From positions 1-52,809 of the forward strand of contig CAINNR010000016.1 of NCBI GenBank assembly GCA_903851235.1: a stretch of 52,809 bases of DNA, given 5' to 3'. Of this stretch, positions 16,199-43,529 are shown piece by piece (position 1 is the stretch's first letter; every line of letters begins with the position of its first letter). Below the pieces are notes generated by a model. It was not told where the DNA came from. It saw only the letters and a list, made by a program, of their open reading frames with translations, and searched no databases. This DNA comes from an uncultured Candidatus Berkelbacteria bacterium. GTDB lineage: Bacteria > Patescibacteriota > UBA1384 > XYA2-FULL-43-10 > CAINNR01. The position numbers and the translations under genes were made by a program.

Positions 16199-18376
16199 CT
16201 ATTTCTCCACCAGTACTATGTCGGCAATGGCGTTCTCGCCGGAAATATTTGTAATTGTGATCGTATCGCCTTTTTTAACGCTGACTTCCCCCAGATCTTT
16301 AACAATAAATTTTTCATCTCCCGATTGTTTGGAAATTTGGAATTTGGAGTTGGAAATTTGAAGTTGGAAGCTACCGCCAACCCCTCCGTCCAAATATCGG
16401 ATGACTAAATCGCCGGATTCATCGGCCACAGCTTGGTGAGATAATACTGCGCCATTTTTCGTTGTATAAATAAAATCCTGCTGTAAATCAGCAAAGATCT
16501 TCTTGCGCCAAAAGGCGTATCGGCCGCGACTCCAGCCATCTTGATATTTATCAAACTCTGATGCCCAATCAGTAATCGGCAAAATGGTCGGATTTTTGTA
16601 CTGCTGTACTGTTTCTATATTCGAATTTTGGATTTGATTTGGAATTTGAGCTTTGTCATTTGAAATCTTGAAGATGTGAATCTTATCGCCAAAATCTTTG
16701 ACATCAACCAGGCCTTTTTTGCTCTTTGCCAAACCGAGCAAGTCCCTGTTATACCACTTGTCTCTGATACTTTGATCGGATTCCAGCCAGAGTCCGGAAA
16801 CCAAATCATATTTCGTCTCCAGGTCGGTTCGGACGATTAAACAATCAGCGCCGCCGTTTTGCATCAAAGATGCGACTTCGCCGTTGTCAGATTTTTCCAA
16901 AAATTGCGAACTCAAACGATTGCGGAAATACATCTCTCCAGATGGCGGTGTTAAAACCGACGCGCCATCGGTTAAATACGAAATTCCAAAAGCCGAAGCT
17001 ATTAGGTCTGAATTAGCGGCGTCAGCGGTTTTATCATCTTTAAAATAGACAAAACCAAGATTCAAAGGATAATAGGCTTTGGTGCAAAAATTCTTGTTTG
17101 ATGAAAGAAAATTTTGGGCTTGGCGATATTCCTCGGGAATTTGTTGTAAATGAAAATATCCCGCGTAGTTGAATGTTAAATACGGCAAGATAATAATGAA
17201 AGTAACGAATACTACCAACAGTTTTGTCGCAATTGATACCAAACGCTTGGATTGCAACCAAGAGAGAATTTGATTTGCGCCGATGGCAAAAAGAAAAATC
17301 AGCGCAAACGATAATAGAAATTCAAAGTGATAAGTTTCACGGAATAAGGCAATTTGCGGAAAGTGGTTAAAAACAAAAGTGTAGAGTGATGTGAATTTTC
17401 CGGTTGGACCGACTGTGAAAGGCAAAATTAATACTGAGGAGAGAATTAATCCGAGAGTTAAGGAACGGTTTTTGCGATCGAAAATTGACAACACGGCGAC
17501 CAGGTATGCCAAACCAAATCCAAGAACAATGATTAACTTTCGCGAAAACGGATAAAAATAACTGACGGTAATGCTGTGATCAGAGAGCATCAAAACATTT
17601 CGCAAACTGTGCGGCAAATCGGCAATGAATTTCAGCGTTACCACTTCGCTTCCAGTTGGAACCGAGTTGCTCGAACCGTGGATCAATCCGACAATAAACC
17701 AGGGCAAAATCAGAATCGCCAACGATGAAATTGTTAAGAGAAAATTTTTCAAAACTACTTTGTTAGCAGTGAAAATCAAATGGATAATTAAAAATAGCAC
17801 TGTCAAAACTCCGGCTTGAAATTGAGAAAAAATCAACGACAGAAGCAGTGCGGATAATAAATACTGCCAAAAGTTTTTTTTCGCTATGAAATAGATGATG
17901 AGAAATATCGGCAGAACAGCATATGCGACAATTGAGTAAGTGAAACCGATTATTGTCCGAATAAATATGTAGGGCGAAAAAGCGTAGGCCAAACCGGTAA
18001 CAAAAGCAACGAATTTAGATTCGATTTTGTTTTTGGCCAGGAGAAAAAAACCGTAGCCGGCGCAAACATGAGCCAAAAGCAGAAATATTTTTAAGCTAAT
18101 TGATGGTGAGATGTTAAAAACTCCGGGCAAGCCTAAAATCGCCTGAGCATATTTTCCGATAATACTGGCAATGCCAAGCGAACCGTTTAGAAATAATCCG
18201 GACCAAAACTGTTTGACGCTGAAAAGCGGCCAGCCCCAGTCATATTTCAGCGGAACGCCTTGCTGGCGAAAAATCGGAAACAAAAAAATGACTGAGATTA
18301 AAATATAGGCCAAAAGCGGCCAGTAATCCCCCAAAAATACTACGATTTTTGATTCGGCTGATTTTTTTGACTTCAT
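16199..18376 (-). CDS. Large multi-TM protein, putative GT-C glycosyltransferase (YfhO/AftD-like)
   Basis: YDWGWP loop after TM1, YAFSPY, FRETYHF; many TM helices followed by an extracellular domain. Confidence 0.6.
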   Translation of the reverse strand: MKSKKSAESKIVVFLGDYWPLLAYILISVIFLFPIFRQQGVPLKYDWGWPLFSVKQFWSGLFLNGSLGIASIIGKYAQAILGLPGVFNISPSISLKIFLLLAHVCAGYGFFLLAKNKIESKFVAFVTGLAYAFSPYIFIRTIIGFTYSIVAYAVLPIFLIIYFIAKKNFWQYLLSALLLSLIFSQFQAGVLTVLFLIIHLIFTANKVVLKNFLLTISSLAILILPWFIVGLIHGSSNSVPTGSEVVTLKFIADLPHSLRNVLMLSDHSITVSYFYPFSRKLIIVLGFGLAYLVAVLSIFDRKNRSLTLGLILSSVLILPFTVGPTGKFTSLYTFVFNHFPQIALFRETYHFEFLLSFALIFLFAIGANQILSWLQSKRLVSIATKLLVVFVTFIIILPYLTFNYAGYFHLQQIPEEYRQAQNFLSSNKNFCTKAYYPLNLGFVYFKDDKTADAANSDLIASAFGISYLTDGASVLTPPSGEMYFRNRLSSQFLEKSDNGEVASLMQNGGADCLIVRTDLETKYDLVSGLWLESDQSIRDKWYNRDLLGLAKSKKGLVDVKDFGDKIHIFKISNDKAQIPNQIQNSNIETVQQYKNPTILPITDWASEFDKYQDGWSRGRYAFWRKKIFADLQQDFIYTTKNGAVLSHQAVADESGDLVIRYLDGGVGGSFQLQISNSKFQISKQSGDEKFIVKDLGEVSVKKGDTITITNISGENAIADIVLVEK
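16329..16370. repeat. Six tandem imperfect 7-mers inside a CDS
   Basis: ttggaaa tttggaa tttggag ttggaaa tttgaag ttggaag, 42 nt, encoding FQLQISNSKFQISK. Confidence 0.7.
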
Positions 18377-18390
18377 TTTAGCGGCTAATC
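18358..18390. repeat. 33-bp direct repeat, left of the AbiE module; contains the start codon of 16199-18376
   Basis: 30/33 identical to 19945-19977. Confidence 0.8.
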
Positions 18391-18399
18391 ACAATCGGA

Positions 18400-19197
18400 T
18401 TATTGATCGTTTGATTCGTCTTTTTCCAACATCTGCTTAAAAAAATGATTAAAATTTACTACTCGTTCGACTTCTCGTGGATTTATTAGGAACGGCTCAA
18501 CCTCTTTGGCTAAGGCTTCGAAATCAATATCCCGACAAAATTTAAGAAATTCTGTTTTCAATTCCTTGCTATTTGAAATCTTCATTTTGCTTTTCAGATA
18601 ATCATAGTTAGGCTTGGTATCGCGCAAAAGAAAAATGATATCAAAAAAATCACGCCCTTTTGCCCTCTTCCTCTCGGTTGCTGCAAAGATTTTTTGAGAG
18701 AGTAAAATATCCTTTGGTGTAATAAATATATTGGTAAAAACGTCAAATTTGTTGAGCTCGAATATCTCAGGAGTATATTTATAATTGTGAGGCATTGTAT
18801 CTAATTGAATAAGTAGTTTTTCCTCTTCTAGACCGGAAAGTTTGTTATCAAAAAGTAACCTTGGAATTTTTACATAGCAATGGTAAGCGCCTTTATAGAT
18901 ATTCCTGATCTCGACAACATATCCTTCAAGAATCAACTCTTTCTTAATCAATGCAGCTATCTTTTCAAAATCATCAACTGACAAATTAAAATTATCAAAA
19001 TCAATATCCTCTGAAAAACGCTGGCTACCATAGCAAATTCGCAGAGCTGTTCCACCCAAAAAGGAAAGCTTATTTGCGTAAGATGAATTAAAGATAATCT
19101 CCAAAATTTTATACTGCAAATACTCTCGCAAGAGAGATTTTGGAAGAGTATATAACTTCTCTGGGTAAGATTGTTTTATCTCATTCAGGCTGATCAT
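18400..19197 (-). CDS. abiEii: AbiEii-family nucleotidyltransferase toxin (type IV TA)
   Basis: FLGGTALRICY...RFSEDIDF; K......R.KGRDFFD. Confidence 0.9.
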   Translation of the reverse strand: MISLNEIKQSYPEKLYTLPKSLLREYLQYKILEIIFNSSYANKLSFLGGTALRICYGSQRFSEDIDFDNFNLSVDDFEKIAALIKKELILEGYVVEIRNIYKGAYHCYVKIPRLLFDNKLSGLEEEKLLIQLDTMPHNYKYTPEIFELNKFDVFTNIFITPKDILLSQKIFAATERKRAKGRDFFDIIFLLRDTKPNYDYLKSKMKISNSKELKTEFLKFCRDIDFEALAKEVEPFLINPREVERVVNFNHFFKQMLEKDESNDQ

Positions 19198-19807
19198 TGA
19201 ATATATCGTTAATTAATAAACTGACTCTTTTCTTTAGCGGTTTGTCTTTAATTAAACTTAGATAATTACTGACTTTTGCCTTTGATATCAATTTTCTGGC
19301 CAGCTCTTTATTTATTCTTAGCTCGTAGAAATCATCTTGACTTTTTAATTCCGGACGAAGATAGAGATAATCAATTATTGCCTTTTCCGGTTCAGCCATT
19401 TTTATCTCGTTTTCAGCCTGTTTGATCAGCTTATATCCAAAAAACATCGAGGGCTTAATTTTATTATAAGTAAACAAAGCAAGCGGGGTTTCAAACTGAA
19501 TTTTTCTTTTACTTGAAACTGCGGTGATCGAAAAAACTCCTTCGGGAATAAAACCGTAATATGATAGCGCTGATTCCAGTGAGACATAACTCGGCTCTAA
19601 CAATTTATTGGAAATAAAAAACATCTCTGTTTCACCAAAAGAATTATCGGGAAAATAGTAATGCTTATTAATAATTTTTTTAATATAGCCTTTTTTAATC
19701 CATTCACTGATACGTCGCAGATCAAAATTTGCCTGGTATTTTTTAATATCAGTCAATGAAAAAGTAATATAGTTACCAAATAGGTTTTTGAGCTCGATAT
19801 ATTTCAT
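19181..19807 (-). CDS. abiEi: AbiEi-family antitoxin/regulator
   Basis: PSYVSLESALSYYGFIPE; AEPEKAIIDYLY; overlaps abiEii. Confidence 0.85.
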   Translation of the reverse strand: MKYIELKNLFGNYITFSLTDIKKYQANFDLRRISEWIKKGYIKKIINKHYYFPDNSFGETEMFFISNKLLEPSYVSLESALSYYGFIPEGVFSITAVSSKRKIQFETPLALFTYNKIKPSMFFGYKLIKQAENEIKMAEPEKAIIDYLYLRPELKSQDDFYELRINKELARKLISKAKVSNYLSLIKDKPLKKRVSLLINDIFNDQPE

Positions 19808-19809
19808 AT

Positions 19810-19867
19810 ATATGTTATATTTAACATATTACATAAACATTCTATCAAAGATAAAAATTAGTGTCAA
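19810..19867 (-). promoter_or_regulatory. abiE promoter with a palindromic operator
   Basis: TTGACA(19867-19862)-N17-TAGAAT(19844-19839); palindrome atatgtta-tatt-taacatat at 19810-19829. Confidence 0.65.
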
Positions 19868-19944
19868 GCAGACTACATTTCATTTTCTTATCATTTTTAA
19901 TAACTTAATGAAATTTAATACAAATGAATAGCTCTGGTGATACA

Positions 19945-19977
19945 CTGATTCTTCTGACTTCATTTTACCGGCTAATC
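19945..19977. repeat. 33-bp direct repeat, right of the AbiE module
   Basis: ctgattcttctgacttcattttaccggctaatc versus 18358-18390. Confidence 0.8.
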
Positions 19978-20037
19978 GTAGCAAATTTGGTCGAGAATTA
20001 AAAGCGCCCCGACAGAAGCCGGGGCGAAGAGAAAAAC

Positions 20038-21180
20038 TTACGGACTCTTCGGTTCGTCAGCCAGACGAACATCAAACAGCCGATAATCAAGGTTCTGATA
20101 TTTTGCCAGAAAATTGGCGGCAAACCGATCTCTGCCTCCCGGATTGTAAAAATGGACAATCAGACTTCCGCCGCGACCGCCGGCTCCCGTAACACAGATA
20201 CCGGAAGATTCTCTGGTCTCCAATATTATCTCCTCTGCAACACTGTTAATCAGATCCGGATGCAAATCCATCTGGCAAGTCTTAAGTTGGGATAAAACCT
20301 TAGTAAACAAATCGACATTGTCCAGTCTGAGCGCTTCCGCCATCAGAGCAGCAGTCATGCCGATATTTCTCAACTTATCTGTCGCCAACTTTTCATTCTC
20401 ACGTAGTTTATCACCAACCATTTGGTGGATATCGGAGGAGTTGTGCCCACCAAGATAGACAACAACAGCAGTTTCGAAAAGTCTGCGAACATTATTACCG
20501 ACAACCTCCGGTGAAACACTGAAGGCATACAAATCTTCAATTCTGATATACTGACAAGCGCTTGGCTTCAGACTCGATCCCTGTGTCGCGGCGATTTGGT
20601 CCTGATTACCGGTTTTGACACAAAGGATCTTGTCCTCGACGAAAACTGCCATTCTGGCGATCTCATCGGCCGGATAATCAGAGCCGAGAAAGGCCCGAAG
20701 AATCGCGACTGAGGTTGCCGCCGAGGTTCCGAGTGAGGCACCCGGCCCAATCGGACTGGAAATCGACAGATGAATATCGCCAGCCGGAATTCTGCTGAAA
20801 TCAAGCAGACTCAAAACTGCCAACGGCAACTCTCTTTTGTTAAAATCACCGGCAGCCAAAGCTTGACGGTCGGCAAAACAGTCAAACTTCGGATCCGATC
20901 CGGCGGAAACGATTATCTTGCCAGCCTCTGACGACCGCGACTCGCCGATATGAGCAAAGACCTGCAAGCCCTTGAACTGGCTTTTTTCTCCGTGAGGCCG
21001 CAAGTAACCGGAGAAATTCAAAACACTTCCCTGCCCAACCAAAGTTCTGGCCAACGGAGTGTCCGACCACTTCCCTGGATCATCCAAGCGAACCGGAACC
21101 TCAGCAAAATAACCTCGAACAATTCTTGGCTCTGAGACAGCCACCGGTTTCATCTGTTCCATCATGCTCACCTCATTCAT
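20038..21180 (-). CDS. GHMP-family sugar kinase (HddA-like)
   Basis: VPVRLD, PIGPGASLGTSAA, GNQDQ, TGAGGRG; cgccccg hairpin terminator at ~20006-20036. Confidence 0.8.
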   Translation of the reverse strand: MNEVSMMEQMKPVAVSEPRIVRGYFAEVPVRLDDPGKWSDTPLARTLVGQGSVLNFSGYLRPHGEKSQFKGLQVFAHIGESRSSEAGKIIVSAGSDPKFDCFADRQALAAGDFNKRELPLAVLSLLDFSRIPAGDIHLSISSPIGPGASLGTSAATSVAILRAFLGSDYPADEIARMAVFVEDKILCVKTGNQDQIAATQGSSLKPSACQYIRIEDLYAFSVSPEVVGNNVRRLFETAVVVYLGGHNSSDIHQMVGDKLRENEKLATDKLRNIGMTAALMAEALRLDNVDLFTKVLSQLKTCQMDLHPDLINSVAEEIILETRESSGICVTGAGGRGGSLIVHFYNPGGRDRFAANFLAKYQNLDYRLFDVRLADEPKSP

Positions 21181-21286
21181 CTGATATCATGTCGTATATT
21201 ATCGTATCTTTTTACTTTTTATTTGTCAATATCAAAATTAGTCGCAACAGCAGGGGCAATTTGCGATTTTCTAAATAGAGAACAAA

Positions 21287-21877
21287 CTATTTAAACTTCA
21301 TATTTTGGGCTTTCGCTCTGGTTTTCGAATCAAAGCGATATTTGATAATTTTTGCCGGCACTCCGCCGACAATCGCAAACGGCTCGACATCTTTCGTTAC
21401 TACGGCGCCGGCGGCAACGATTGCGCCCCGACCGATAGTAACCCCCGGCAAAACAACAACATTGGCACCAAGCCAAACATCATCAGCGATTTTTACCGCC
21501 GCTTTTTCAAATCCTTGGGCTGAAATCGGCCGACTCCAGTCGGAGAATTTATGATTTAGAGTTAGAATCGATGAATTTTGGCCGATCCAAACGTAATTCC
21601 CAAGTGTCAGGCCGGCGATGCTTTCTATGTGGCAGTTGTGGCTGAGAAAGATATGGTCGCCACAGGTTAAATTTTCGCCGCCGATATAGCAGTAGTCGCT
21701 AATACAAACATCGTGACCGAAAGAGATTCCGCCGGGACCGGCCAGAGTGCAACCGCGGCCGATTCGCAATGATTTGCCTGATCGGATAAAAAATAACTTC
21801 CAAAAACAGGCTCGCCAGTGACCAGCTAATGAATTGAAGAAATTGTAGATTTTTCTCAAACAAGAATTTAATTTCAT
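21287..21877 (-). CDS. Hexapeptide-repeat sugar O-acetyltransferase
   Basis: [43 protein letters not shown]. Confidence 0.9.
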
Positions 21878-21916
21878 CTGATTTATTGTTTAGGGTCTAC
21901 TACTCACTAGCTTTTA

Positions 21917-22261
21917 TTAATCTTCTTCCTCGGTTTTTGTCATTGTCATTTTTATGACTGAAATAAAGAAAAACAGCATTGCTCCAAGTGAAAACTGATC
22001 AGTTAAATCAGACTTTTTCAGTACTATCGATAGGGACATCAAAACGAAAAAAACGAATGCCCATACTGCAATCTGTCTGCCACTGGGGCTTGCAAATATC
22101 GCCCAAATCGCTAGCAAAAAAACAATTATTTGGATTGGATGCCAATTTAAATACAGACCCAAACATCCGGAGAAAAACAAAAAAATGTATCTGAGGTCAG
22201 GAATATTATCCGCAATAATATTGCGGCTGTTTTTAATTTCCATTTTTTTAACTTTTTTCAT
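21917..22261 (-). CDS. Small multi-TM membrane protein
   Basis: About four hydrophobic segments; coupled to the upstream gene (ATGA overlap). Confidence 0.6.
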   Translation of the reverse strand: MKKVKKMEIKNSRNIIADNIPDLRYIFLFFSGCLGLYLNWHPIQIIVFLLAIWAIFASPSGRQIAVWAFVFFVLMSLSIVLKKSDLTDQFSLGAMLFFFISVIKMTMTKTEEED

Positions 22262-26317: not shown

Positions 26318-26345
26318 AACATAAATAGATGTTAGAAATAAACTT

Positions 26346-26399
26346 CCCACGACCTTACGGTCGGGGATCTAAGTGAGGAAGATTAGAGATTTAATCTTC
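26346..26399. repeat. Two short palindromes (REP-like)
   Basis: cccacgacc-ttac-ggtcgggg; gaagatta-gagatt-taatcttc. Confidence 0.45.
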
Positions 26400-31774: not shown

Positions 31775-31777
31775 CAG

Positions 31778-33618: not shown

Positions 33619-33621
33619 TTT

Positions 33622-33754
33622 TTAACTCTGTTTTCAATTTACCCGATTTAGTTCCCTAGCCCCAAACACCACCTGTCCGACCTTTACCCGACCATAAACC
33701 CAAAGCGTCAACCAACAAACCATTGGATGGAATAACCAAGCGCGATCCGATTTT
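33622..33754 (-). pseudogene. Relic diverged copy of the 3' end of GT2 gene 33986-34999
   Basis: Ungapped alignment with 33989-34115, 97/127 identical by hand count; reads DRAWLFHPMVCWLTLWVYGRVKVGQVVFGARELNRVN*KQS*. Confidence 0.85.
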
Positions 33755-33818
33755 AATAGAAATTATCCGCCGTTACCAGTCTAACTTTTGCGTCTGGGTA
33801 TCTGTTTTTAAAAATCGT

Positions 33819-33881
33819 ATGTATAAATAGTTATATCTTTTTAAGCACCCAATGTACAAAAAGTTATATCTATTTATACAT
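33819..33881. repeat. 24-bp inverted repeat (22/24) with a 15-nt spacer, operator-like
   Basis: atgtataaatagttatatcttttt ... aaaaagttatatctatttatacat. Confidence 0.75.
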
Positions 33882-33985
33882 CGTGACTTGTTTCTGTTGA
33901 GCTTTCTTTGATATATTGTGAACCCGATTATAGGTTAATCCTCATATCCAATTCCTAATAGATCAATGGATAGGCTTTTATCACC

Positions 33986-34999
33986 TTACTGTTTCCAGCC
34001 AGCCCGATTCAGTTCCCGGGCACCGAAAATCATCTGCCCGATCTTACCCCAGCCGTAAACCCAAAGCGTCAACCAGCAGGCCAACGGATGAAAGAACCAG
34101 GCGCGATCCGGTTTTTTAACATAGCCGATGCAAGCCTCGACAAAGGTCGGCAACCAGAGTGCGGAAAAAATAATGAATTTTACAAACCCACCTTTGTTCA
34201 ATTTGTTCCAAGGATATTTCCGTACGCCAAGTTTATTGTAATAGCCGAAATCTTTGATTCGCCGCTTTTGTTTGCGAATGAAAGTTGAAACCGTACCGGA
34301 AAAAACGTGGATGATGCCAACTTTGACTTTGGCAAATTTATTTTTCTTATGTGCTATCAGTTCGTGAATTTCATCAATGTCAAATAAATAATCACCAACC
34401 TGTTTTTCTATCAGTGCCCGACGAATCATCGTGCCGTTGGCGCCGATTGTCGGAACCTTATATTTCTCCAGAGTTAACTTGATGTAGTTGCCGCAATCTT
34501 CCTCCACCACCGGTAAAGCGGTCCAGCGGCCGGTCAGATGATTAATACGGTCATAATTGCCCAAGTACATGCAGATCGGATCATTCATACCAATTAGGGC
34601 ACAGTAGCGGGTAATATAGCCATCTTTCTTTCGATAAGTATATTCGATCGGCTCAGACCCGATAATCTGGCTGTCAACAAACGGCTCAACCATTCGCTCC
34701 AACCATTTTTTGTCCGGTAGATAATTGTCCGAGTCGATCAAGGCAATAATTTCATTTTTGGCCGCTTTGAGTCCGGCGGCTTTGCCGGCTTCACCGGTTA
34801 TAAGCTTATTCGGTACGACACGGCAACCGTACTTTTTGGCGATGGCAAGTGTTTTATCGGTTGAACCACCATCGGCAATAATAATTTCGTACTTTGATTT
34901 CGGATACTCTTGATTTCGGATCCGACGCAAACATTCGCCAAGCGGCTTGGCGGCATTCAAGGTTGGGATAATAATGGAGACTGTCGGTTGATTTTTCAT
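33986..34999 (-). CDS. GT2 glycosyltransferase
   Basis: VSIIIPTLN, ADGGSTDKT, IDSDN; C-terminal TM helices. Confidence 0.9.
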   Translation of the reverse strand: MKNQPTVSIIIPTLNAAKPLGECLRRIRNQEYPKSKYEIIIADGGSTDKTLAIAKKYGCRVVPNKLITGEAGKAAGLKAAKNEIIALIDSDNYLPDKKWLERMVEPFVDSQIIGSEPIEYTYRKKDGYITRYCALIGMNDPICMYLGNYDRINHLTGRWTALPVVEEDCGNYIKLTLEKYKVPTIGANGTMIRRALIEKQVGDYLFDIDEIHELIAHKKNKFAKVKVGIIHVFSGTVSTFIRKQKRRIKDFGYYNKLGVRKYPWNKLNKGGFVKFIIFSALWLPTFVEACIGYVKKPDRAWFFHPLACWLTLWVYGWGKIGQMIFGARELNRAGWKQ

Positions 35000-35032
35000 A
35001 AGGTTTATTTAATTGATTACTAGTGATTATTT

Positions 35033-35458
35033 TTACGTCCACAACTTATTATGATCGAAGTTTTTAGCAGCTCGATAGGAGATAAAATATGTCGGCCAAA
35101 CAGCGCCGTTCATGACAGTATCGTAGAGCAGATGAAGTAAATTGGAAAAACCGAGCGAAAGAAACAGCCAGCCAAGATTCGGAAAAATAAATCCCAGCGC
35201 AATGAAGATGATAGCATATTCAAAACCGTGAGCAAAAACATAAACTTTACCGGAAGTGACAAAATGTTTGCCGGAAAAAAAATCAGCTGAGTTGAGTTTG
35301 AAACCGCGGTTGATAAAATAATCTATCAAGTGATCGCCATCGATAAAAAAACCGCCGACCAAGGCCAATCCAACGGCCCAAAAATCATGGCAAAAATATC
35401 CGACTATTATGCCGACAATGATCGAAAGTGAAAAGTGAGTTAATTCGTCTTGAATCAT
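35033..35458 (-). CDS. Membrane protein, YdjM-like metal-dependent hydrolase family
   Basis: TH, IDGDH, HGFE and HLLYD motifs among TM helices. Confidence 0.6.
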   Translation of the reverse strand: MIQDELTHFSLSIIVGIIVGYFCHDFWAVGLALVGGFFIDGDHLIDYFINRGFKLNSADFFSGKHFVTSGKVYVFAHGFEYAIIFIALGFIFPNLGWLFLSLGFSNLLHLLYDTVMNGAVWPTYFISYRAAKNFDHNKLWT

Positions 35459-35485
35459 AAATTAGTCTCATTAACCCCAATAAGT

Positions 35486-38383
35486 CTAATTGCTCTTGTT
35501 AGATTTTTTCGAAGAAAAATCCGTCAGATGTCCGAGCACTTTTCCGCCAGCGCGAAAGAGGAATTTGATGTCGTCGAAACTTCGAACGCCAACGATCTTT
35601 CGCCAGATAAATTTCGGCGTCACAAATGACTTGTATAAATCCTGCGTCAACTCTTTAATTTTCTCCTCGGTCAGCTCCGATTTCATGATAATTGTTCGCT
35701 GATCGTACTTGTCCCAATCCTCGGTCGTCAGCCAACCATTTTCCTGACACTGTTTGAACAACGGCGTGCCCGGGTAAGGAATTACGATTGTCGCTTGCAA
35801 AGTGTCAACAAAACCCTTATCAAATAATCGCTTTGAGAGGGCAACAGTTCTCTCGGCATCGGCAACCTTCTCCCAGGGATAGCCCATCATCGTGGTAATG
35901 TGCGGCTCAAGTCCACCGGCTTTGGCCATTTTGACACCTTTCTCGATCTCTTCAACCTTCAAGTTTTTATTGATGCGGTCCAGAGTTTTTTGATTGGCCG
36001 ATTCCAAACCGTAGAGGATGAAACGGAATCCGGCTTTGCCCATCAGATTATATTCCTCCTGATTCAACGATTTCAACCGCATATTGCAATCAAGTTTGAT
36101 TTTTTTGTTGTATCCGCGTTCAATCATACCGTCGCAAAATTCGCCCAACCACTCTCCGATCGGAAACGATCCGGAGTCATCCATAATCTCTCGAACCTGA
36201 TATTTTTCGATTAATTCGCCGATTTCATCCAGCACTCTCTTAACCGAATGTTTGCGATAATCTTTGCCCGGATAAAGCGTCGTCCAAGAGCAATTTTTCA
36301 CCGCTACAAAATTCGCCGTGTAGGAGTGATCATCATCAACGGTTAAATTATAAACATCTCCGGAATAAGCGCTTCTGATAATGTTTTTGACTGGTAATAG
36401 AGCATAATTATTAAAAATAAAGCCTTTTTGATAATGTTTTTGCTTGTGAGCAGATAGAGACGTCGGAAAGAATTTTTTAATGTCGTCGCCATATAGATGA
36501 ATAACATACGCTTGATTTTTTGTTTTTTTACCCGCTTTCGGTAAACGGAAACTGGCAATTATATTTTGGCGCAAAAGTAGATCGTAAACTTGGCGAGCAA
36601 GTTTTTCCGAAACTGTTGAAAAAATTAGTTCCCGACCACCATGAACTCTTTCTTTTCTGACATGACCGTCACCGCGAAAAAGACCAACCAACAATTGTTT
36701 TTGCTTGGAAAGCGACAAATGCATAAAACTTGCCGGCAATGATTTGTTAAGACTATTTGAACCGAAAAGCAATTCAAAAGCCCTGGCTAATATGGAAGAA
36801 CCCAAATAAAGCTGAGTCGTATTGTTAGCCTTGTTTTCACTTGCATTTAAAGACAGCCCAAAAATTTGCCCGAAGATCGTTTTTACGTCCTTTATATATT
36901 CTTTTTCTTTTTGAGAAAAGGTAAAACCCAGACAGGCAGAATTTGGTCTATTGCCACGTAGGCTAACATGTCCTTCAGCCAAATAGTAACCGAATAAACG
37001 CAAAGATTCGGCCGATAGTTCCATCTCTCTTGTTACGGACTTCTTGCCTGCCTCAAAACGAAAATCGCTCTTTGTCTCGATTAATGGATTTATTTTTATC
37101 GTCAATTCATCAGATTCAATCAAATCAAAGTAGCGCTTTACTGTTTCTCGGTCAATTTTTAATTCAATAGCTACCCTTCTTTGTGAAACACCATTTAGCC
37201 GCAAATTTTTAATCTTTTCAATTACCGACGGTGAGATTTTTCGTCTTGTTTTAAGCTTTATTTCGGCACTGCGAATAATTTCAGTCAAGTCCAGTGTTTT
37301 CATATCTTTGACTCGCCGATCAATTGGCAGGGAAAGATAATCGCCTGGAGAAATTTCCTCAGCCGGAACAGCGATAATCTCCGGTTTGGTTTTATTCTCC
37401 TGTCGACAAATATAAATCGGGTGATTTGAAGTTGCAAGAATCTTTTCAGCCAAATAATCGGCTTCAACAGTAATCACTGGACCAAGATATGCTCGGCGAT
37501 GCCAGTGGGTAATCTTTCGATACCTGCCCGTATGAGTAAGTACCTTTGCAGATTGCTTATTATTAACAATGTCTTCAATCGGAAAATAACCACTATCGGT
37601 AGTAATTTTGGCACCGGCGGGAAAGCAGAATGTGCATTTTCCCCACCAACAATCGCGGGCGGCAAAGGTGTAAGTTCCCGGCGTTCGTTTGTAATTGCCG
37701 TTTTTAAAGGCGTAGAGTTTCCACTTGGTCAGATCGCGATCGATCATCGGTAGTTCATCGAGGTGATGATTTAGGAGAAAATGTCCGGTATTTTTAATCT
37801 CTTCTTTCGATCGACTCCCATCCGAACTTTTTACTTTTTTCCGGTACCAGATTCCCGGTTCGAGTTGAACTTTGTGATTGTAAGAATTGGCGATATTGAG
37901 GGCGAGAAAATCGTAATCGCCGCCGGTGGCAATAACATCGACAAGTGAATTTTTCATCGACTCCATAGGCAGTGCGGTAACATGATCGCCGCAAAGAACT
38001 ATTTTGGTCTCCGGCAACTCGTCTTTTATAACCTCAATAACTTTCCAGTGCCGTTTAACAACCGGCGTTTTGGTTTCGAAGACAATAAGGTTCGGCTTAA
38101 ACTTTTTAATTCTCTCCAACCATTCGTCTTGCGATAATTCCTCGGCAATGCCATCATCCCACATTACGTCATAGCCCTGCGATTTTAGAAGTGACGCGGC
38201 ATAAGCCGGCACCATCGGATAGATGAAAGTCGGATTGGCAAACCACTGAAACTGACGATTCTGACCAAGACAGGGCGTCCCCTTTTCACTTGGCATCGGC
38301 GGATAAGAAATCGCAATCCGGAACTTGCTATTTTTCTCCCGCTGTTCTTTGGTCGGCTGTTTAATCTGAACTATTTTTTCCAT
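35486..38383 (-). CDS. B12-binding radical SAM protein (HpnJ-like) containing an intein
   Basis: AAGGA RBS and ATG 38383; B12-binding-like N-domain; C-WWGK-C-TF-[intein]-C motif; GLESANQ, PYPGTPL. Confidence 0.85.
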   Translation of the reverse strand: MEKIVQIKQPTKEQREKNSKFRIAISYPPMPSEKGTPCLGQNRQFQWFANPTFIYPMVPAYAASLLKSQGYDVMWDDGIAEELSQDEWLERIKKFKPNLIVFETKTPVVKRHWKVIEVIKDELPETKIVLCGDHVTALPMESMKNSLVDVIATGGDYDFLALNIANSYNHKVQLEPGIWYRKKVKSSDGSRSKEEIKNTGHFLLNHHLDELPMIDRDLTKWKLYAFKNGNYKRTPGTYTFAARDCWWGKCTFCFPAGAKITTDSGYFPIEDIVNNKQSAKVLTHTGRYRKITHWHRRAYLGPVITVEADYLAEKILATSNHPIYICRQENKTKPEIIAVPAEEISPGDYLSLPIDRRVKDMKTLDLTEIIRSAEIKLKTRRKISPSVIEKIKNLRLNGVSQRRVAIELKIDRETVKRYFDLIESDELTIKINPLIETKSDFRFEAGKKSVTREMELSAESLRLFGYYLAEGHVSLRGNRPNSACLGFTFSQKEKEYIKDVKTIFGQIFGLSLNASENKANNTTQLYLGSSILARAFELLFGSNSLNKSLPASFMHLSLSKQKQLLVGLFRGDGHVRKERVHGGRELIFSTVSEKLARQVYDLLLRQNIIASFRLPKAGKKTKNQAYVIHLYGDDIKKFFPTSLSAHKQKHYQKGFIFNNYALLPVKNIIRSAYSGDVYNLTVDDDHSYTANFVAVKNCSWTTLYPGKDYRKHSVKRVLDEIGELIEKYQVREIMDDSGSFPIGEWLGEFCDGMIERGYNKKIKLDCNMRLKSLNQEEYNLMGKAGFRFILYGLESANQKTLDRINKNLKVEEIEKGVKMAKAGGLEPHITTMMGYPWEKVADAERTVALSKRLFDKGFVDTLQATIVIPYPGTPLFKQCQENGWLTTEDWDKYDQRTIIMKSELTEEKIKELTQDLYKSFVTPKFIWRKIVGVRSFDDIKFLFRAGGKVLGHLTDFSSKKSNKSN
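36293..37627 (-). mobile_element. Intein (445 aa) with a LAGLIDADG homing endonuclease and an HTH insert
   Basis: Starts CFPAGAKITT; block B ATSNHP; LFGYYLAEG and LVGLFRGDG; ends VYNLTVDDDHSYTANFVAVKN followed by extein Cys. Confidence 0.9.
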
Positions 38384-38489
38384 ATATTCCTTGACAATTA
38401 TTATTTTATATGATATAAATACTTTGACTCTGAAGCTTGGTATTTTCAGAGTAGCAAAAAAAATCTCCAACAACAAGGAGGCGACGCAA

Positions 38490-39296
38490 GTGACAAGGCA
38501 AGCAACCCAGTACCACTTCGGAATTTCGCTGGCGTCGCTTATACCGCAGAATGTTTTCTTTCCGATCGAGGAGATTGTCGAAGCACTGGCAGAGCTCGGG
38601 TTTGAGTTTCTCCAGGGCGGACCGTTTCGCGGAGTCAGCGGTTATGAAAACTTCGCCATTCCGGTTAAATACAAAGAGCCGACTTGGAACGGAGTCGACA
38701 GTTTGTCCCAGGCGCTCTTCGGCCAGGGCGATGATTTCGAAAAGGCGGATCTCAAGGACTGGCTGGCCTTCCCGGAAACCTGGATTGCCGACCAGGTGTT
38801 CCATCGGCTGCCAGGCCGGGTTGTTTCTCACGAGTTTTCCGCCGGAGACAGACTGGTTGAACTAAATCCGAAAATCAAAATGACGGCGGAGAAAATCGTC
38901 GACAAGTGCCAACGCGAAGGTTACGACTTAGTGATCGACACCAAGCACATGTTCGAGGATAACGCCAAGTTTGATCCTCTCTTCGATAGAATGCCAAACC
39001 ACTTCGGCCGGACAGTAGATGAGAAGTTGGCAAAAATCCGGATCATCTCTCCAAGTGTTGACTTGCTTCACGTTAAGGCAACGGACGGCTTGGACCGAAG
39101 AATTCTCGACGAGTTTCTCCGGTCACCACACCGTCAACAGCTTGACGTCTTGGCAGAGTATCCGCCGATTGCCAGAGCGATGGACATTCCGAAAATGTTC
39201 GCCTCGGCAGGATTCCGTCAGCAAAAGAGAACCGAAGCGCTCGAATATGCCAGCCACTTTCTCCATAGACTAAAGAATATCTTCAACCAAAACTGA
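38490..39296 (+). CDS. Hypothetical protein, possibly TIM-barrel (xylose isomerase/AP endonuclease-like)
   Basis: AAGGAGG RBS before GTG 38490; LVELNP, VIDTKH and LLHVK could be metal ligands. Confidence 0.55.
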   Translation: MTRQATQYHFGISLASLIPQNVFFPIEEIVEALAELGFEFLQGGPFRGVSGYENFAIPVKYKEPTWNGVDSLSQALFGQGDDFEKADLKDWLAFPETWIADQVFHRLPGRVVSHEFSAGDRLVELNPKIKMTAEKIVDKCQREGYDLVIDTKHMFEDNAKFDPLFDRMPNHFGRTVDEKLAKIRIISPSVDLLHVKATDGLDRRILDEFLRSPHRQQLDVLAEYPPIARAMDIPKMFASAGFRQQKRTEALEYASHFLHRLKNIFNQN

Positions 39297-39328
39297 CCCC
39301 GCCCCTCCGGTGGGGTTTTTTATTTCAA
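39297..39328 (+). terminator. Terminator, also direct repeat copy 1 flanking ftsH
   Basis: ccccgcccctccggtggggttttttatttcaa; 30/33 identical to 41266-41298. Confidence 0.75.
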
Positions 39329-39483
39329 ATATCAAAAAACCTATCGTGCCGATTTTCGGATTCAAGGTCAAAAAGCTTGACAAGGCAACGATTTTTTGCT
39401 AAAAGTATGAAGTCCGCACAAACATGCGGAAGCAGCAAAAAAACTAAATAGGCCACCAGGCCATCGACAAGGAGCTGGTAGCA

Positions 39484-41256
39484 GTGTTCGATAATAAAAC
39501 ACCAAAGAGTGGTTATCTATTTCTCGCCGTTGTGATCGCCTTGACAATCACCTTGCACTATTTTTCACATTACATCGATCGAAAGAAAACCGAGAAAGTT
39601 CCGATTTCCAAGCTTTTTCAGGAAATTGACAGCAAAGACGTGACATCGATTACCATCGCCGACACCTTGATTTCATGGGAAACGAAAAACCAAGACCAAT
39701 TCATCTCGGTTGATGATCGACTCCATACTGACAAACTTGTTGCTACCATCGGCGGTTACAATAAGAGTAATCCTCCAATTACACTTGAGATCAAGAACGA
39801 AAGTCATTTCCCCTGGGTGGATATCCTCTTGGTCGCACTTATGGCTCTGATTGTATTGCCATCGCTTAATCGACATTTGATGCCGTTTCATGCCAAAAAA
39901 ACCAACGGTAAAACTGAAACTACATTCAATGACGTTGCCGGCATTGAGGAAGCAGTCGAGGAGGTTTCCGGCATAGTTGATTTCCTGAAAGATCCGGATA
40001 AGTATATTCAAATGGGGGCCAAGATGCCTAAAGGAGTGCTGCTTTTCGGACCTCCGGGATCCGGCAAAACACTTCTGGCCAGAGCTATCGCCGGTGAAGC
40101 CGGTGTAGCGTTTTTTTATCTCTCCGGCTCAGATTTTGTAGAAATATATGTCGGAGTCGGTGCCAAACGGATTAGGGATCTTTTTGCCGAAGCTAAGGCG
40201 GCTGGTAGGGCGATTGTCTTTGTTGATGAGATTGATGCTGTTGGTGCTCGGCGAGGCCTTGCGACCCACTCTGGTAACAGTGAAACCGACCAAACTCTAA
40301 ACGCCCTTCTTTCAGAAATGGATGGTTTCGGTGAAAACACCGGCGTCATTTTCATTGGCGCTACAAATCGTCCTGACGTTCTAGACCCGGCACTTCTCAG
40401 GCCCGGTCGCTTCGATCGACGAGTTATGGTTTCATTGCCTGACAACATTGGACGATTCGAAATTCTTCGACTCCATGCCAAAGCAATCCCGATGGGTCCC
40501 GATATCAGTCTTCAAAATCTGGCATCAACGACCGTTGGGATGTCAGGCGCCGAACTGACCAATATCTTGAACGAAGCAGCAATTATGGCGGTTGAAAACA
40601 GCAGAGGTTTTGTCACTAATCAGGATTTGGAGTTAGCTCGCGACAAACAGATCATGGGGAAACAACAAAAAAGTCGTCTGATTTCACTGGCGGACAGAAA
40701 GATTGCTGCCATCCATGAATCAGGACACGCTGTCGCACAGATTGTATTGGCTGGTAACGATCCGGTCCACAAAATATCGATTATCCCACAAGGTCACGCG
40801 CTGGGAGTGACGATGTTTATGCCGGAGCGGGATGTTTCTCTCTACACAAGAACAATGCTGCAGAACCAGATGACGACAATCCTTGCCGGTCGGGCAGCGG
40901 AGGAGTGTTTCTGTGATGACATCACTACCGGTGCCGAAAATGATCTAAAAAGGGCGACTGAAATCGCCCGGAGCATGATCGAGCGTTTCGGTATGAACTC
41001 CAGTATTGGTTTGATCGACTGCACAGCCACCGATGATTACGGCGTCTCGCTAATCAGCGATGTCACCGCCAAATCGGTAGACGATCAGATCAAATTAACT
41101 TTGGATGACGCCTATTCCACAGCTAGAAAGCTGCTCAAATCCAACGAAGAGCTCGTCAGGACGCTGGCAGATAGATTGGTTGAGATCGAAGTTCTAAATG
41201 CCGAGCAAATATACGCAATTGTCTATTCGGTCGGCATCAAACCATTTGCCAGTTGA
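39484..41256 (+). CDS. ftsH: ATP-dependent zinc metalloprotease FtsH (probably an accessory copy)
   Basis: Two TM helices; GPPGSGKT, VFVDEID, ATNRPDVLDPALLRPGRFDR, HESGH. Confidence 0.9.
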   Translation: MFDNKTPKSGYLFLAVVIALTITLHYFSHYIDRKKTEKVPISKLFQEIDSKDVTSITIADTLISWETKNQDQFISVDDRLHTDKLVATIGGYNKSNPPITLEIKNESHFPWVDILLVALMALIVLPSLNRHLMPFHAKKTNGKTETTFNDVAGIEEAVEEVSGIVDFLKDPDKYIQMGAKMPKGVLLFGPPGSGKTLLARAIAGEAGVAFFYLSGSDFVEIYVGVGAKRIRDLFAEAKAAGRAIVFVDEIDAVGARRGLATHSGNSETDQTLNALLSEMDGFGENTGVIFIGATNRPDVLDPALLRPGRFDRRVMVSLPDNIGRFEILRLHAKAIPMGPDISLQNLASTTVGMSGAELTNILNEAAIMAVENSRGFVTNQDLELARDKQIMGKQQKSRLISLADRKIAAIHESGHAVAQIVLAGNDPVHKISIIPQGHALGVTMFMPERDVSLYTRTMLQNQMTTILAGRAAEECFCDDITTGAENDLKRATEIARSMIERFGMNSSIGLIDCTATDDYGVSLISDVTAKSVDDQIKLTLDDAYSTARKLLKSNEELVRTLADRLVEIEVLNAEQIYAIVYSVGIKPFAS

Positions 41257-41265
41257 TTGCTTTTT

Positions 41266-41298
41266 CCCCACCCCGCCGGTGGGGATTTTTTATTTCAA
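41266..41298 (+). terminator. Terminator, also direct repeat copy 2; overlaps the hicA stop
   Basis: ccccaccccgccggtggggattttttatttcaa. Confidence 0.75.
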
Positions 41299-41515
41299 CT
41301 TGTCGAGATCCTCTTTATTAAGTCCGGCAATTTTAGAATATTATTTAGTGTTCCCGGCTTAATAAATTTGTGATTCGCTACAATAGCTATTTTTTATCAC
41401 CGTCGGTTTTTTCCAATTTTATCTGGCTACCTTTTTGCCCAACGATTTCAACCCCAAACTTAACCAACAGTTTTATTAAAACTTTGGCTGAGATTTGGGA
41501 GTACTTGGCGATCAT
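41290..41515 (-). pseudogene. hicA: HicA toxin pseudogene
   Basis: MIAKYSQISAKVLIKLLVKFGVEIVGQKGSQIKL, then frameshifts to IAIVANHKFIKPGTLNNILK; GSH is changed to GSQ. Confidence 0.75.
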
Positions 41516-41713
41516 TTATCGAACTCTAAGTTGCATTGGAACAACAAATTCTCTTTTGATTTCCGGAAGCGATTTTTTACCAACATACAGATCGGCAGCT
41601 TCCTGGATATTGCGCAATGCTTCCTCAAAGGTATCGCCGCCTGGCAACGACGGAACGGAAACGGAAAAACCGCCATCTTTTTCTTCCTGAAATAAAACGA
41701 AAATTTCTCTCAT
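41516..41713 (-). CDS. hicB: HicB-family antitoxin, possibly degenerate
   Basis: EEKDGGFSVSVPSLPG-GDTFEEALRNIQEA; lacks the usual ~4 residues between PG and GDT. Confidence 0.75.
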   Translation of the reverse strand: MREIFVLFQEEKDGGFSVSVPSLPGGDTFEEALRNIQEAADLYVGKKSLPEIKREFVVPMQLRVR

Positions 41714-41765
41714 GATTTGATATTATTAAAGCGCAAAACAAATGTAGGGCAAACTTTATCAGTCT

Positions 41766-41839
41766 AATTTTCGAACGATCAGGCCTTGGACGAAACGAAT
41801 GCCGTAGCAAACATGAGTTAGAAAAATCATCGGGATTGT
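41766..41839. repeat. 74-bp direct repeat (old 3' end of GT2 gene 42543-43529)
   Basis: 73/74 identical to 42553-42626. Confidence 0.95.
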
Positions 41840-41841
41840 GA

Positions 41842-42252
41842 TCAGTCCAAAACCTCTTCAAGAAATTTTGTCGGTGAGATTATTTCAATTTTTTTATACT
41901 TTTTCAAAGTCAGCAAATGACGATCACCGGAGATTATGAAATCGGCTTGAGCCAAATCGGCAATTGCCAAAAATTCATTATCCGACGGATCGGCCAAGAT
42001 AATTTCAGGAACTTTATCAGGCGAAATAAATATAAAATTTTCTCTGATACTGCATTCGACCAATTGAAGTTGTTCGGGAGAATATTTAAATTTTTTCTTC
42101 AAAACTCTCAACAACTCTCTCAAAGCATTCATGCTGGAATACGCTTCGAACATTTTCCCAAGAGTAACCAATTCGTAAATTATCTGCGGTTTTCCACCAA
42201 AAGTTAGAGCCGAAATGATAATATTTGTGTCAAGCACTATTTTTCGTTTCAT
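41842..42252 (-). CDS. PIN-domain toxin (PIN_3/VapC-like)
   Basis: IVLDTNIIISAL, DPSDNEFL, IISGDRHLL. Confidence 0.9.
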   Translation of the reverse strand: MKRKIVLDTNIIISALTFGGKPQIIYELVTLGKMFEAYSSMNALRELLRVLKKKFKYSPEQLQLVECSIRENFIFISPDKVPEIILADPSDNEFLAIADLAQADFIISGDRHLLTLKKYKKIEIISPTKFLEEVLD

Positions 42253-42481
42253 TGCGGGTTTCTTTTATCAAACGATTAACATCGGCTTTTTTTATCGCCA
42301 ATTTTTTTGCTTGACCTTTTCCATAGTCAAAAATTTCGCTTAACTCTTTTTGCTTGATTAAATAACCGCGCAGGGCTTCGCGAAAAAGCTCGCTTCGATT
42401 GCGACTTTCTTTCTTGGCAATCGCATCGGCTTCCCTCAGCAATTTTTTGCCAATTGAAATATTAATGATTGTTGTATCCAT
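42230..42481 (-). CDS. RHH/CopG antitoxin
   Basis: INISIGKKLLREADAIAKKESRNRSELFREALR. Confidence 0.85.
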   Translation of the reverse strand: MDTTIINISIGKKLLREADAIAKKESRNRSELFREALRGYLIKQKELSEIFDYGKGQAKKLAIKKADVNRLIKETRNETKNSA

Positions 42482-42542
42482 ATTCTCCTTTCAACATAAA
42501 CTATATATTATCTATATAACTTATGTCAACACTCAGACTGAG

Positions 42543-43529
42543 TTACCTCGCCAATTTTCGAACGATCAGGCCTTGGACGAAACGAATGCCGTAGCAAACA
42601 TGAGTTAGAAAGATCATCGGGATTGTCAGAATCCCAACCAGTGGGTTTTTGTAGCGCCAAGAGATGACGACGGCGTCAACGACAAGGCCGACGATGTAAA
42701 CCATAAGCGGGATGGCAGAGAATAGGAGTATGAAGTATGGAGTATGGAAGATAAATAAGGCAAAAATCAGCAAAATAAGGTACAGATCGAACAATGTTGG
42801 CGCGAAATAGCCGATTTTTAGTGAAGTTTTCGGATAGATTTTGGCGAAGTGTCCGCGGTGGAGTGCGTAGTTGCCGATCTGCTTGAAATGCTTGACCAGA
42901 TCGCTTCGGCGATGGTGATAAACGACTCCCTGCGGATCATAGATAATCTTATAGCCGGCGTTGATAATGTCAAGACAAAGTTTTGTGTCCTCGCCCGGCC
43001 AAAAAGCGCTATCAAAGCCACCGACCTGTTTGAATACATCGCGCCAAACCAGAAGATTAACTGTCGGCCAATCTTGCGTTTCGGACAGCGAACCGATCGG
43101 CAAATAGCGATTTCTGGTAAAACCGCCACCGACGTAGGACTCGAAAATCGCGCCGGAGACTTTTTGCAGAACTCCGTCGGAACTTGGAGTAATCGCCGGC
43201 CCGCCGACAGCGCCAACTTCGCCATGGCGAAAACTGCCAACCATTTTCTTAAGCCAATCAGCTTGAGGATAAGCATCATCATCCAAAAAGGCCAGGATTT
43301 TGCCGCTGGCATGTTTTAGGGCCAAATCACGTTTCTTCGCCGGTCCGACTTTCCCCGATGGAATAATTTTGGTTTTTGGCCAAGAGTGAACTTTATCTCT
43401 TTCATCCGGAAAGATAAGAATTTCAAAAGCCGGATAATCGAGCGCCAAAAGATAATCCATTGATTCATGGATGTAATCGTTGATCCGTTTGACCGGAATA
43501 ATAATTGAAACTTTTGGTCTCGACTTCAT
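42543..43529 (-). CDS. GT2 glycosyltransferase
   Basis: VSIIIPV, FLDDDAYP, GGFD...PGED; C-terminal TM helices. Confidence 0.9.
   Translation of the reverse strand: MKSRPKVSIIIPVKRINDYIHESMDYLLALDYPAFEILIFPDERDKVHSWPKTKIIPSGKVGPAKKRDLALKHASGKILAFLDDDAYPQADWLKKMVGSFRHGEVGAVGGPAITPSSDGVLQKVSGAIFESYVGGGFTRNRYLPIGSLSETQDWPTVNLLVWRDVFKQVGGFDSAFWPGEDTKLCLDIINAGYKIIYDPQGVVYHHRRSDLVKHFKQIGNYALHRGHFAKIYPKTSLKIGYFAPTLFDLYLILLIFALFIFHTPYFILLFSAIPLMVYIVGLVVDAVVISWRYKNPLVGILTIPMIFLTHVCYGIRFVQGLIVRKLAR

Follow-up and report, generated by a model that had tools for sequence, protein, structure and literature searches.

Insertion with long target duplication (ILTD), of which Nobusato et al. (2000) is said to be the founding paper, is the described system closest to the one reported here. 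The portions of Furuta, Abe and Kobayashi (2010) considered here describe it for restriction-modification units, with direct repeats that are long, variable and unique to each site, no mobility genes, sister genomes whose empty site has the sequence once, and repeats that can overlap a gene's 3' end; they place most cases in naturally competent species and offer no mechanism beyond suggested double-strand breaks (PMC2853133). In the part of Touzain et al. (2010) considered here, direct repeats flank 10-18% of small variable segments, with a length below 30 bp for 66-94% of these repeats (PMC2884548). We have analyzed a stretch of 52,809 nt (the window) from an uncultured Candidatus Berkelbacteria bacterium (assembly GCA_903851235.1, contig CAINNR010000016.1, positions 1 to 52,809), in which four sites within a surface-glycan locus are each bracketed by a direct repeat of local sequence, three of them around a block of cargo genes (AbiE, ftsH and RHH-PIN) and one around a spacer. 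A preliminary description of this DNA knew of no named system with this layout; the layout is, however, that of ILTD (PMC2853133).

The likeness extends to small gene units without a mobility gene, site-unique and variable repeats of more than 30 bp that are not high-copy sequences, inserts of less than 20 kb, empty sites in relatives, selfish or defence cargo and an unexplained mechanism. The cargo differs, being AbiEi/AbiEii, ftsH and RHH-PIN in the window and, over the window and the rest of the genome, toxin-antitoxin (TA) genes, abortive infection (Abi) genes, an ftsH paralogue, an insertion sequence (IS) and orphan genes, rather than restriction-modification genes. The host differs as well, as an ultra-small bacterium of the candidate phyla radiation (CPR) type in which neither ComEC nor DprA is detectable, and so does the density, which at about 19 sites per 1.04 Mb is very high. 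Several of the repeat pairs are only 76-87% identical and diverge in the manner of alleles, which points to a donor plus a resident copy rather than to a duplicated target. The literature searched held no account of this footprint for CPR bacteria or for TA cargo.

The AbiE, ftsH and RHH-PIN blocks are true insertions. We propose, with moderate confidence, that the four sites are the scars of recombinase-free gene gain, three of them insertions and one an allele swap, left by homologous exchange on one side combined with an illegitimate join on the other.

Four repeat pairs in the glycan locus

The window is the whole of contig C16 of a metagenome-assembled source genome (1.04 Mb in 39 contigs, 98% complete), here labeled G000; G001 to G023 are the genomes of relatives, and L and C numbers denote loci and contigs. 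The glycan locus occupies 14.8-50.7 kb of the window and encodes GT-C, GT2 and GT4 glycosyltransferases, methyltransferases, a flippase and rhamnose genes. Each of the four repeat pairs was recovered at the positions given in the preliminary description, and its general features of the layout stood up as well: the repeats are unrelated to one another (their sequences differ and their lengths run from 33 to 127 nt), the ORFs (open reading frames) of the host genes are unbroken, the cargo stop codons lie within about 10 nt of a repeat copy and there is no integrase in the window. For this last point, and for the assignment of the cargo families, the 48 ORFs of the window were scanned with Pfam, supplemented by NCBIfam, and none matched an integrase, recombinase or transposase Pfam family. 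Each of the four repeat sequences occurs only twice in a genome-wide self-alignment and is therefore not a high-copy element. The inserts measure 0.2-2 kb and have no linked mobility genes, and the cargo's GC content, 0.31-0.36 against 0.42 for the window, indicates a foreign composition.

At site 1 the host gene encodes a GT-C-type glycosyltransferase (16199-18376, minus strand; Pfam GT-C_AftD, 26.7 bits). Copy A of repeat 1 (18358-18390) is 33 nt long and takes in 14 nt of leader and, with the ATG, 19 nt of the GT-C gene; it contains the functional start codon, as had been noted before (CAT at 18374-18376 on the strand shown, the gene being on the minus strand). The cargo (18400-19807, minus strand; GC 0.31) consists of an AbiEii toxin gene (18400-19197; Pfam AbiEii, 67.4 bits), whose stop codon is 9 nt from the repeat copy, and an AbiEi-like antitoxin gene (19181-19807), for which the match is weak (NCBIfam, 43 bits, under its cut-off). 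Copy B (19945-19977), a pseudo-start of 33 nt, joins the ancestral upstream flank and the terminator of a GHMP-kinase gene. The two copies are 91% identical over 33 nt, with a longest identical run of 13 nt. In G007 and G009 the GT-C start, the leader and the upstream terminator form one unbroken sequence without AbiE, and alignment with these two genomes and G003 shows that copy B of the window continues the ancestral upstream flank whereas copy A continues the gene. In G003 itself (locus L037, 1385-1545) a pseudo-start copy of the GT-C leader lies about 118 nt upstream of a different GT-C start codon, which may be the scar of another event at this site.

At site 3 the repeat is a terminator hairpin, in line with the earlier account. 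Copy A (39297-39328, plus strand) follows directly on the stop codon of o301, a conserved gene of unknown function whose start is uncertain (38391-39296, plus strand), and copy B (41266-41298, plus strand) stands 9 nt after the stop codon of the cargo gene and joins the ancestral flank on the HicA side. The copies, 32-33 nt long, are 78% identical when aligned without gaps and 91% identical with one gap, and the single terminator found in G009 resembles both. The cargo is a second, divergent ftsH (39484-41256, plus strand; Pfam, and NCBIfam FtsH_fam with 624.6 bits against a cut-off of 600), which shares 40% identity with the canonical ftsH on C28 and 39-44% with its best match among the 12 relatives searched. 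No ftsH follows o301 in any of the five relatives in which o301 was found (G009, G003, G005, G021 and G023), and it is likewise missing from all 67 metagenome loci that reach 400 nt or more downstream of GT2d, the host gene of site 4.

Sites 3 and 4 form a single convergent gene junction at which three blocks have gathered, HicAB, RHH-PIN and ftsH. GT2d (42543-43547, minus strand) carries copy B of repeat 4 (42553-42637), which lies 10 nt before its stop codon, while copy A (41766-41850, 85 nt) is a pseudo 3' end of GT2d that joins the HicB flank, with an ancestral-type stop region just beyond it. The cargo (41842-42481, minus strand; GC 0.36) was assigned by Pfam as an RHH antitoxin gene (42230-42481) and a PIN toxin gene (41842-42252), the stop codon of the latter lying 0-2 nt from the repeat copy. 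The copies are 93% identical over 85 nt and share an identical run of 59 nt; the inner 74 nt, the extent given in the preliminary description, are 98.6% identical, with one difference. The neighboring block (41387-41713, minus strand) is the older occupant and comprises a HicB-like antitoxin gene (41516-41713; Pfam HicB_lk_antitox, 23.5 bits, below the cut-off) and a truncated HicA-like ORF (41387-41515) cut to 42 aa, one of two cases noted in this genome of a toxin gene that looks decayed beside an intact antitoxin gene.

The relatives carry the parts of this junction separately. HicB lies directly beside GT2d, with a single copy of the gene end and no RHH-PIN, in G008 and G005, and the same GT2d-HicB variant is found at loci L083 and L089; a GT2d-RHH-PIN variant is found in G003, G021, L110 and L111, and G009 has neither cassette. 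The window is the sum of both locus variants, with a leftover GT2d end between the HicAB and RHH-PIN blocks. A metagenome search with GT2d found the duplicated gene end in none of 67 loci and returned no close strain. At the four other places occupied by RHH-PIN the gene end is not duplicated, so the duplication is not an obligatory mark of the cassette. The preliminary description had proposed looking for empty sites in relatives, and these are present for sites 1, 3 and 4; because the relatives carry each local sequence once, the three cargo blocks are insertions and the second copy in the window duplicates ancestral local sequence.

Site 2 lacks cargo. Copy A of repeat 2 (33628-33754, 127 nt) is the remnant of the 3' end of a diverged GT2 allele that still reads in frame as coding, and copy B (33989-34115) is the 3' end of GT2c (33986-34999, minus strand), which may be the host gene or an imported one and whose protein is 93% identical to that of G003 and 88% to that of G009. 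Between the present GT2 stop codon and the remnant lies an AT-rich spacer of 234 nt (33755-33988; GC 0.31), without an ORF and without a counterpart in G003 or G009. The copies are 76% identical over 127 nt (97/127), with a longest identical run of 20 nt; copy B matches G003 at 100/127 positions and copy A at 88/127, and with a ratio of non-synonymous to synonymous change (pN/pS) of 0.21 for the pair the remnant still reads as a conserved GT2 C terminus. The empty site is only partial here, since the relatives carry one GT2c end but the GT4-side flank is not conserved beside it. The 127-bp repeat of a GT2 3' end therefore holds as first described, while the deleted cassette postulated between the copies was inference only; the site looks like an allele replacement that left a remnant of the diverged resident gene end. 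Within the spacer there is an inverted repeat at 33819-33881, at which independent contigs tend to end.

We considered that strain variants had been stitched in tandem during assembly, which the metagenomic origin of the 39 contigs and the breaking of independent contigs inside the site-4 repeat, as a 59-nt exact repeat should cause, might suggest. Three of the four pairs, however, are too diverged to collapse in a k-mer graph, and, with 100% identity, independent contigs from four lake-water runs of one study (the source sample may be among them) extend across both ftsH junctions and over the site-2 spacer (X1, record 5; X2, records 13 and 15; X3, records 17 and 18). These are assembled contigs rather than reads, and they bear on sites 2, 3 and 4; a peat run (X5), at 0.09 of the sampled words, is not among the four and carries no information on habitat. 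The contigs speak against an assembly artefact, which had been named as an outcome that would undo the earlier account, and we regard it as extremely improbable.

A recombinase or transposase acting in trans from elsewhere in the genome also has to be weighed, since the genome does encode candidates: the only Phage_integrase-family match (C15, 64387-64890), a large serine recombinase gene (C13, 26543-28120) and an IS on C8 (13198-14902, locus L003) that holds a gene for a 500-aa DDE_Tnp_1 transposase, has terminal inverted repeats of 16 nt and is flanked by a perfect direct duplication of 53 bp, an unusually long target duplication for an IS. Integrase islands at tRNA genes and gene 3' ends, and their derivatives without an integrase, resemble the present sites in that the insert rebuilds the target gene's end and leaves a partial target copy on the far side; they work through a single conserved attachment core together with a tyrosine or serine recombinase. 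The window, in contrast, holds four unrelated sites but no recombinase match among its 48 ORFs, and repeats of 33-127 nt that are unrelated to each other offer no common core site. Integron cassettes are likewise small units, often of a single gene or a TA pair, that are bounded by direct repeats and have the cargo stop codon near the boundary element; the present sites have no shared attC-like structure and no IntI, and each repeat copies unrelated host sequence. Among transposable elements, IS1630 of Mycoplasma makes target duplications of 19-26 bp, as cited in the consulted portion of PMC2853133, and such elements share with our sites the long direct duplications around inserted DNA. The window cargo, however, has no transposase and no terminal inverted repeats at its ends, and the end motif of the C8 IS has no match in the window at up to three mismatches. 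Duplications made by a transposase would moreover be identical at birth and would not differ in an allele-like manner. An enzyme in trans, whether a tyrosine recombinase, a large serine recombinase or the transposase of the IS with the 53-bp duplication, is accordingly very unlikely.

Divergence of the repeat copies and the route of entry

Six ungapped coding gene-end pairs from the window and from other contigs (GT2c, GT2d, PilB, YdjM, PBP2 and an M23 peptidase) were pooled for a test of how their copies diverged. There are 37.5 synonymous differences in 101.7 sites against 22.5 non-synonymous differences in 351.3 sites, a pN/pS of 0.17 that is well under the value of at least 0.5 expected for an in situ copy decaying freely (binomial P = 2.5e-5). 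The distance between copies equals that between orthologues from different species of the genus, as seen for PilB, where copies A and B agree at 54/62 positions and copy B agrees with G001-G003 at 53-54/62. Since the differences are mostly synonymous and the divergence is at the level of species, one copy probably came with incoming DNA, and the coding copies at these sites are probably two juxtaposed alleles, as far as their sequences tell. The identity between copies is also interrupted: the longest identical run is 13-22 nt in 9 of 13 pairs genome-wide, with 13 nt for PilB and 14 nt for the M23 peptidase, while the zeta-toxin site on another contig reaches 37-40 nt. Such short runs make a crossover inside the repeat unlikely and call for an anchor elsewhere in the gene.

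In the sequence of events that we favor, the incoming DNA would stem from a related lineage in which the cargo was already placed next to the corresponding host gene. On one side it would recombine by homologous exchange within the host gene common to both lineages, and an illegitimate join on the other would fall in, or just before, the end of the resident gene copy, such that the gene end, leader or terminator of both donor and resident would be kept, flanking the cargo, with the host gene intact. The footprint would then arise as a side effect when locus variants recombine, as at about 19 places in the genome, rather than as the work of a dedicated cassette system. Repeats that are almost identical, such as those of site 4, could later lose the cargo between them. 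The insertions, the doubling of ancestral local sequence, the lack of mobility genes and the allele-like divergence of the coding copies are observed, whereas we infer the one-sided route and the direction of transfer. The presence among relatives of both parental variants of site 4, GT2d-HicB and GT2d-RHH-PIN, counts in favor of this explanation. Homology-facilitated illegitimate recombination, a process of transformable bacteria, combines one homologous anchor with one illegitimate join and needs no recombinase, and it explains why cargo would stand beside the same conserved gene in donor and recipient. The cases attributed to de Vries and Wackernagel (2002) and Prudhomme et al. (2002) are said mostly to delete or replace recipient DNA at the illegitimate end; here, by contrast, the join lies inside the anchor region and the resident gene end is kept, and competence genes were not detected.

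The preliminary description had instead suggested that the cargo arrives on small circles together with one homologous gene end, that a single Campbell-like crossover inserts them and that the reverse reaction excises them. Laboratory insertion-duplication mutagenesis is of this Campbell type. Its product is the one seen here, with cargo between two direct copies of the homologous local sequence, a target gene left intact if the homology includes its end, no recombinase and possible reversal when the copies recombine with each other; that the coding copies diverge like alleles would equally fit an incoming homologous segment. RecA exchange needs about 20-30 nt or more of identity, which site 4 (59 nt) and the zeta-toxin site (37-40 nt) offer, and RecA is encoded in the genome. 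In one of the four runs, moreover, a contig (X4, depth 4) joins 41765 to 42553 and thereby removes RHH-PIN exactly, as an excision product would. The Logan assemblies use k = 31, which the 59-nt exact repeat exceeds, and this repeat could yield the X4 contig as a graph artefact; we take the contig as a hint of reversibility, not as proof.

For most sites, however, the Campbell scheme meets the difficulty that the mismatches between copies would equal those between donor and recipient, which leaves identity of only 13 nt at site 1, 20 nt at site 2, 13 nt at PilB and 14 nt at the M23 peptidase. The homology of 33-127 nt, often with fewer than 20 identical nucleotides in a row, sets these sites apart from insertion-duplication, and the origin of the first circle, which needs an earlier illegitimate step, is left unexplained. 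No junctions of cargo circles were reported among the assembled contigs (not reads) that were compared with the sites, and the RHH-PIN sites of G003, G021, L110 and L111 lack the duplicated gene end. The idea of an incoming homologous gene end is thus probably right, while the Campbell crossover is doubtful at sites 1 and 2, where the identity is at or below the RecA minimum, and we consider it unlikely as a general explanation.

Alternatively, the duplication may arise in situ, with foreign DNA being copied or ligated in during repair of a break or a stalled fork at the target, 30-130 nt of resident sequence being copied a second time (by template switching, or by staggered breaks with fill-in) and later divergence and allele turnover producing the mismatches. 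The consulted portion of Furuta et al. (2010) calls the footprint a target duplication and suggests double-strand breakage (PMC2853133). The pairs that look young are near-identical, with 73/74 at site 4 and 35/36 and 36/38 for terminator pairs on other contigs, and by our own reading 7 of the 17 listed pairs are terminator hairpins, plausible stall sites, to which site 3 of the window adds another. At site 4 the divergence is limited to the final 10 nt, which is what entry of the cargo 10 nt ahead of the stop codon would leave. The pooled pN/pS, on the other hand, lies well below what is expected with one copy decaying, and at site 2 and PilB, where the copies are as far apart as species, duplication in situ would require both great age and a pseudo-copy that escaped decay. 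We judge it improbable for the set as a whole.

Several observations nevertheless weigh against one-sided exchange with an illegitimate join. The copies at site 4 show one difference in 74 nt, yet six in the final 11 nt ahead of the stop codon; duplication in situ, with the last codons contributed by the cargo, would account for this pattern as well as two alleles would, or better. The joins lie 0-9 nt from the cargo stop codons at three sites in the window, something that random joining would not predict. In protein sequence the closest GT2d relatives from metagenomes are at most 82% identical, and no donor is close enough for the exchange to be traced. The bias toward synonymous differences could also have arisen if an in situ duplicate came first and the functional gene was then overwritten by a diverged allele, and the test covers coding gene-end repeats, with terminator and leader repeats outside its reach. 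Finally, a search for genes of recombination and DNA uptake, which the preliminary description had recommended, found RecA and the one Phage_integrase gene on C15 but no match to ComEC (PF03772) or DprA (PF02481) in this 98%-complete genome, leaving no evident route of DNA entry.

The footprint across the genome

The whole genome contains 78 direct repeats of 25-160 nt at spacings of 200-2000 nt, against 2 inverted ones, and such repeats therefore occur beyond chance. With the spacing extended to 200-4000 nt (E <= 0.01), the census gave 87 pairs, of which 50 were left after crowded arrays had been removed, and hand curation assigned 21 of these to 19 sites with the footprint described here, four of them in the window. 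The other 29 pairs comprise two template/variable pairs of retroelements, pairs of tRNA genes, one IS flanked by a 53-bp duplication, tandem paralogues or repeats within genes, a tRNA-Asp array, two dispersed elements, a leader shared by rplO and secY and several unclassified pairs. It had been suggested that the cassettes seed TA modules through the glycan locus. TA genes are indeed found at 5 of the 17 curated sites with scanned cargo, but for 15 of the 19 the location is another contig, next to unrelated genes, which makes that suggestion too narrow.

Among the cargo at the sites outside the window are a zeta toxin, an MNT antitoxin accompanied by the remnant of a decayed HEPN, Fic/Doc, GNAT, a PaaX/Cas2-like protein, an IS and numerous orphan genes. 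By hand count, TA or Abi domains occur in 7 of 22 bracketed ORFs and in 2 of 157 other ORFs of the same scans (Fisher P = 5e-6), in a non-random sample that includes two ORFs of an unclassified pair and omits one C8 ORF. Exact single-copy sites were seen here too: the zeta-toxin cassette is missing in G001, G002, G003 and G005 and the MNT cassette in G003. For sites on C30, C10 and C25 there are relatives without the whole inserted stretch, with no exact empty site seen, and for the Fic/Doc site on C12 the search of relatives gave no informative flanks.

Other origins of the repeats were considered in turn. Tandem paralogy was rejected for most sites, since blastp among neighboring genes found none except three pairs already excluded. 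Pairs of tRNA genes explain the repeats at C27 12876 and C32 29005, which were dropped from the count together with a tRNA-Thr pair at C8 56741. The repeat around a second AbiE module (C15, 24840/26565) was not counted because it is a multi-copy element near tRNA-Ser flanks, and a repeat around the SerRS gene (C30, 15776-15872 and 17140-17229) proved to be a dispersed AT-rich intergenic element of about 95 nt, also found in G002, with SerRS conserved in place. An origin as template/variable repeats of a diversity-generating retroelement (DGR) was rejected for the window pairs, which show mixed mismatches rather than mismatches confined to adenine.

Elsewhere the genome does carry pairs of that last kind, of about 115 nt, at C33 (8287-8401 and 8778-8892) and C35 (32247-32360 and 32711-32824), whose mismatches all fall on one base of one copy (18/18 on T and 15/15 on A), the signature of a DGR template and variable repeat, with one copy at the 3' end of a gene of 1035 aa. 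A core ribosomal gene is bracketed on C1 (24444-24477 and 24920-24953, locus L001), where rplO (L15) and secY share a 34-nt leader (31/34) with a ribosome-binding site and ATGAA. The gap between rplA and rplJ on C25 (11453-15539, locus L013) measures 4.1 kb, against 0.8-1.1 kb in five relatives, and holds four orphan genes, an rve-type IS and two duplications of a terminator plus promoter. Upstream of the MNT gene lies an element of about 60 nt (L010, 2256-2320, equal to C15, 17255-17319) that recurs at C37 17673 and in G001, G003, G006, G008 and G014; it may be a promoter or operator borne by the cassette. The MNT gene itself is the second case of an intact antitoxin gene beside a partner that looks decayed, of which only a 38-aa C-terminal HEPN/DUF86-like ORF remains (L010, 1604-1720, minus strand), with an RNRLIHGY motif that we take to be HEPN/DUF86-like.

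Two further features were noted in the window. The gene for a B12-binding radical SAM protein (35486-38476, minus strand) is split by an intein with a LAGLIDADG domain, which is absent from the homologues of G009, G003, G008 and G023 and present in that of G021. Near the end of the window, a 195-aa ORF (51980-52567, plus strand) has an N-terminal Phd/YefM antitoxin domain and is far longer than usual antitoxins.

Gene turnover in small genomes

Recombinase-free insertion with long flanking duplications has so far been described almost only for restriction-modification genes and has no accepted mechanism. New here are the class of cargo, the host, how densely the scars occur and the allele-like way in which the repeat copies diverge, and the comparison of synonymous with non-synonymous differences can be used on published cases and on other genomes.

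We raise tentatively, as a possibility short of probable, that what has been called long target duplication is in general the juxtaposition of orthologous gene ends from donor and recipient, and that this is the main route by which accessory and defence genes enter and leave the chromosome of ultra-small CPR-type bacteria, at about one scar per 55 kb. If general, it would provide a mechanism for a footprint that has gone unexplained since 2000, and the pseudo-copy, as the fossil of a replaced allele, would become a tool for dating insertions and tracing their donors. Should the test hold, it would explain how tiny genomes poor in mobile-element enzymes turn over their defence genes without breaking the neighboring genes.

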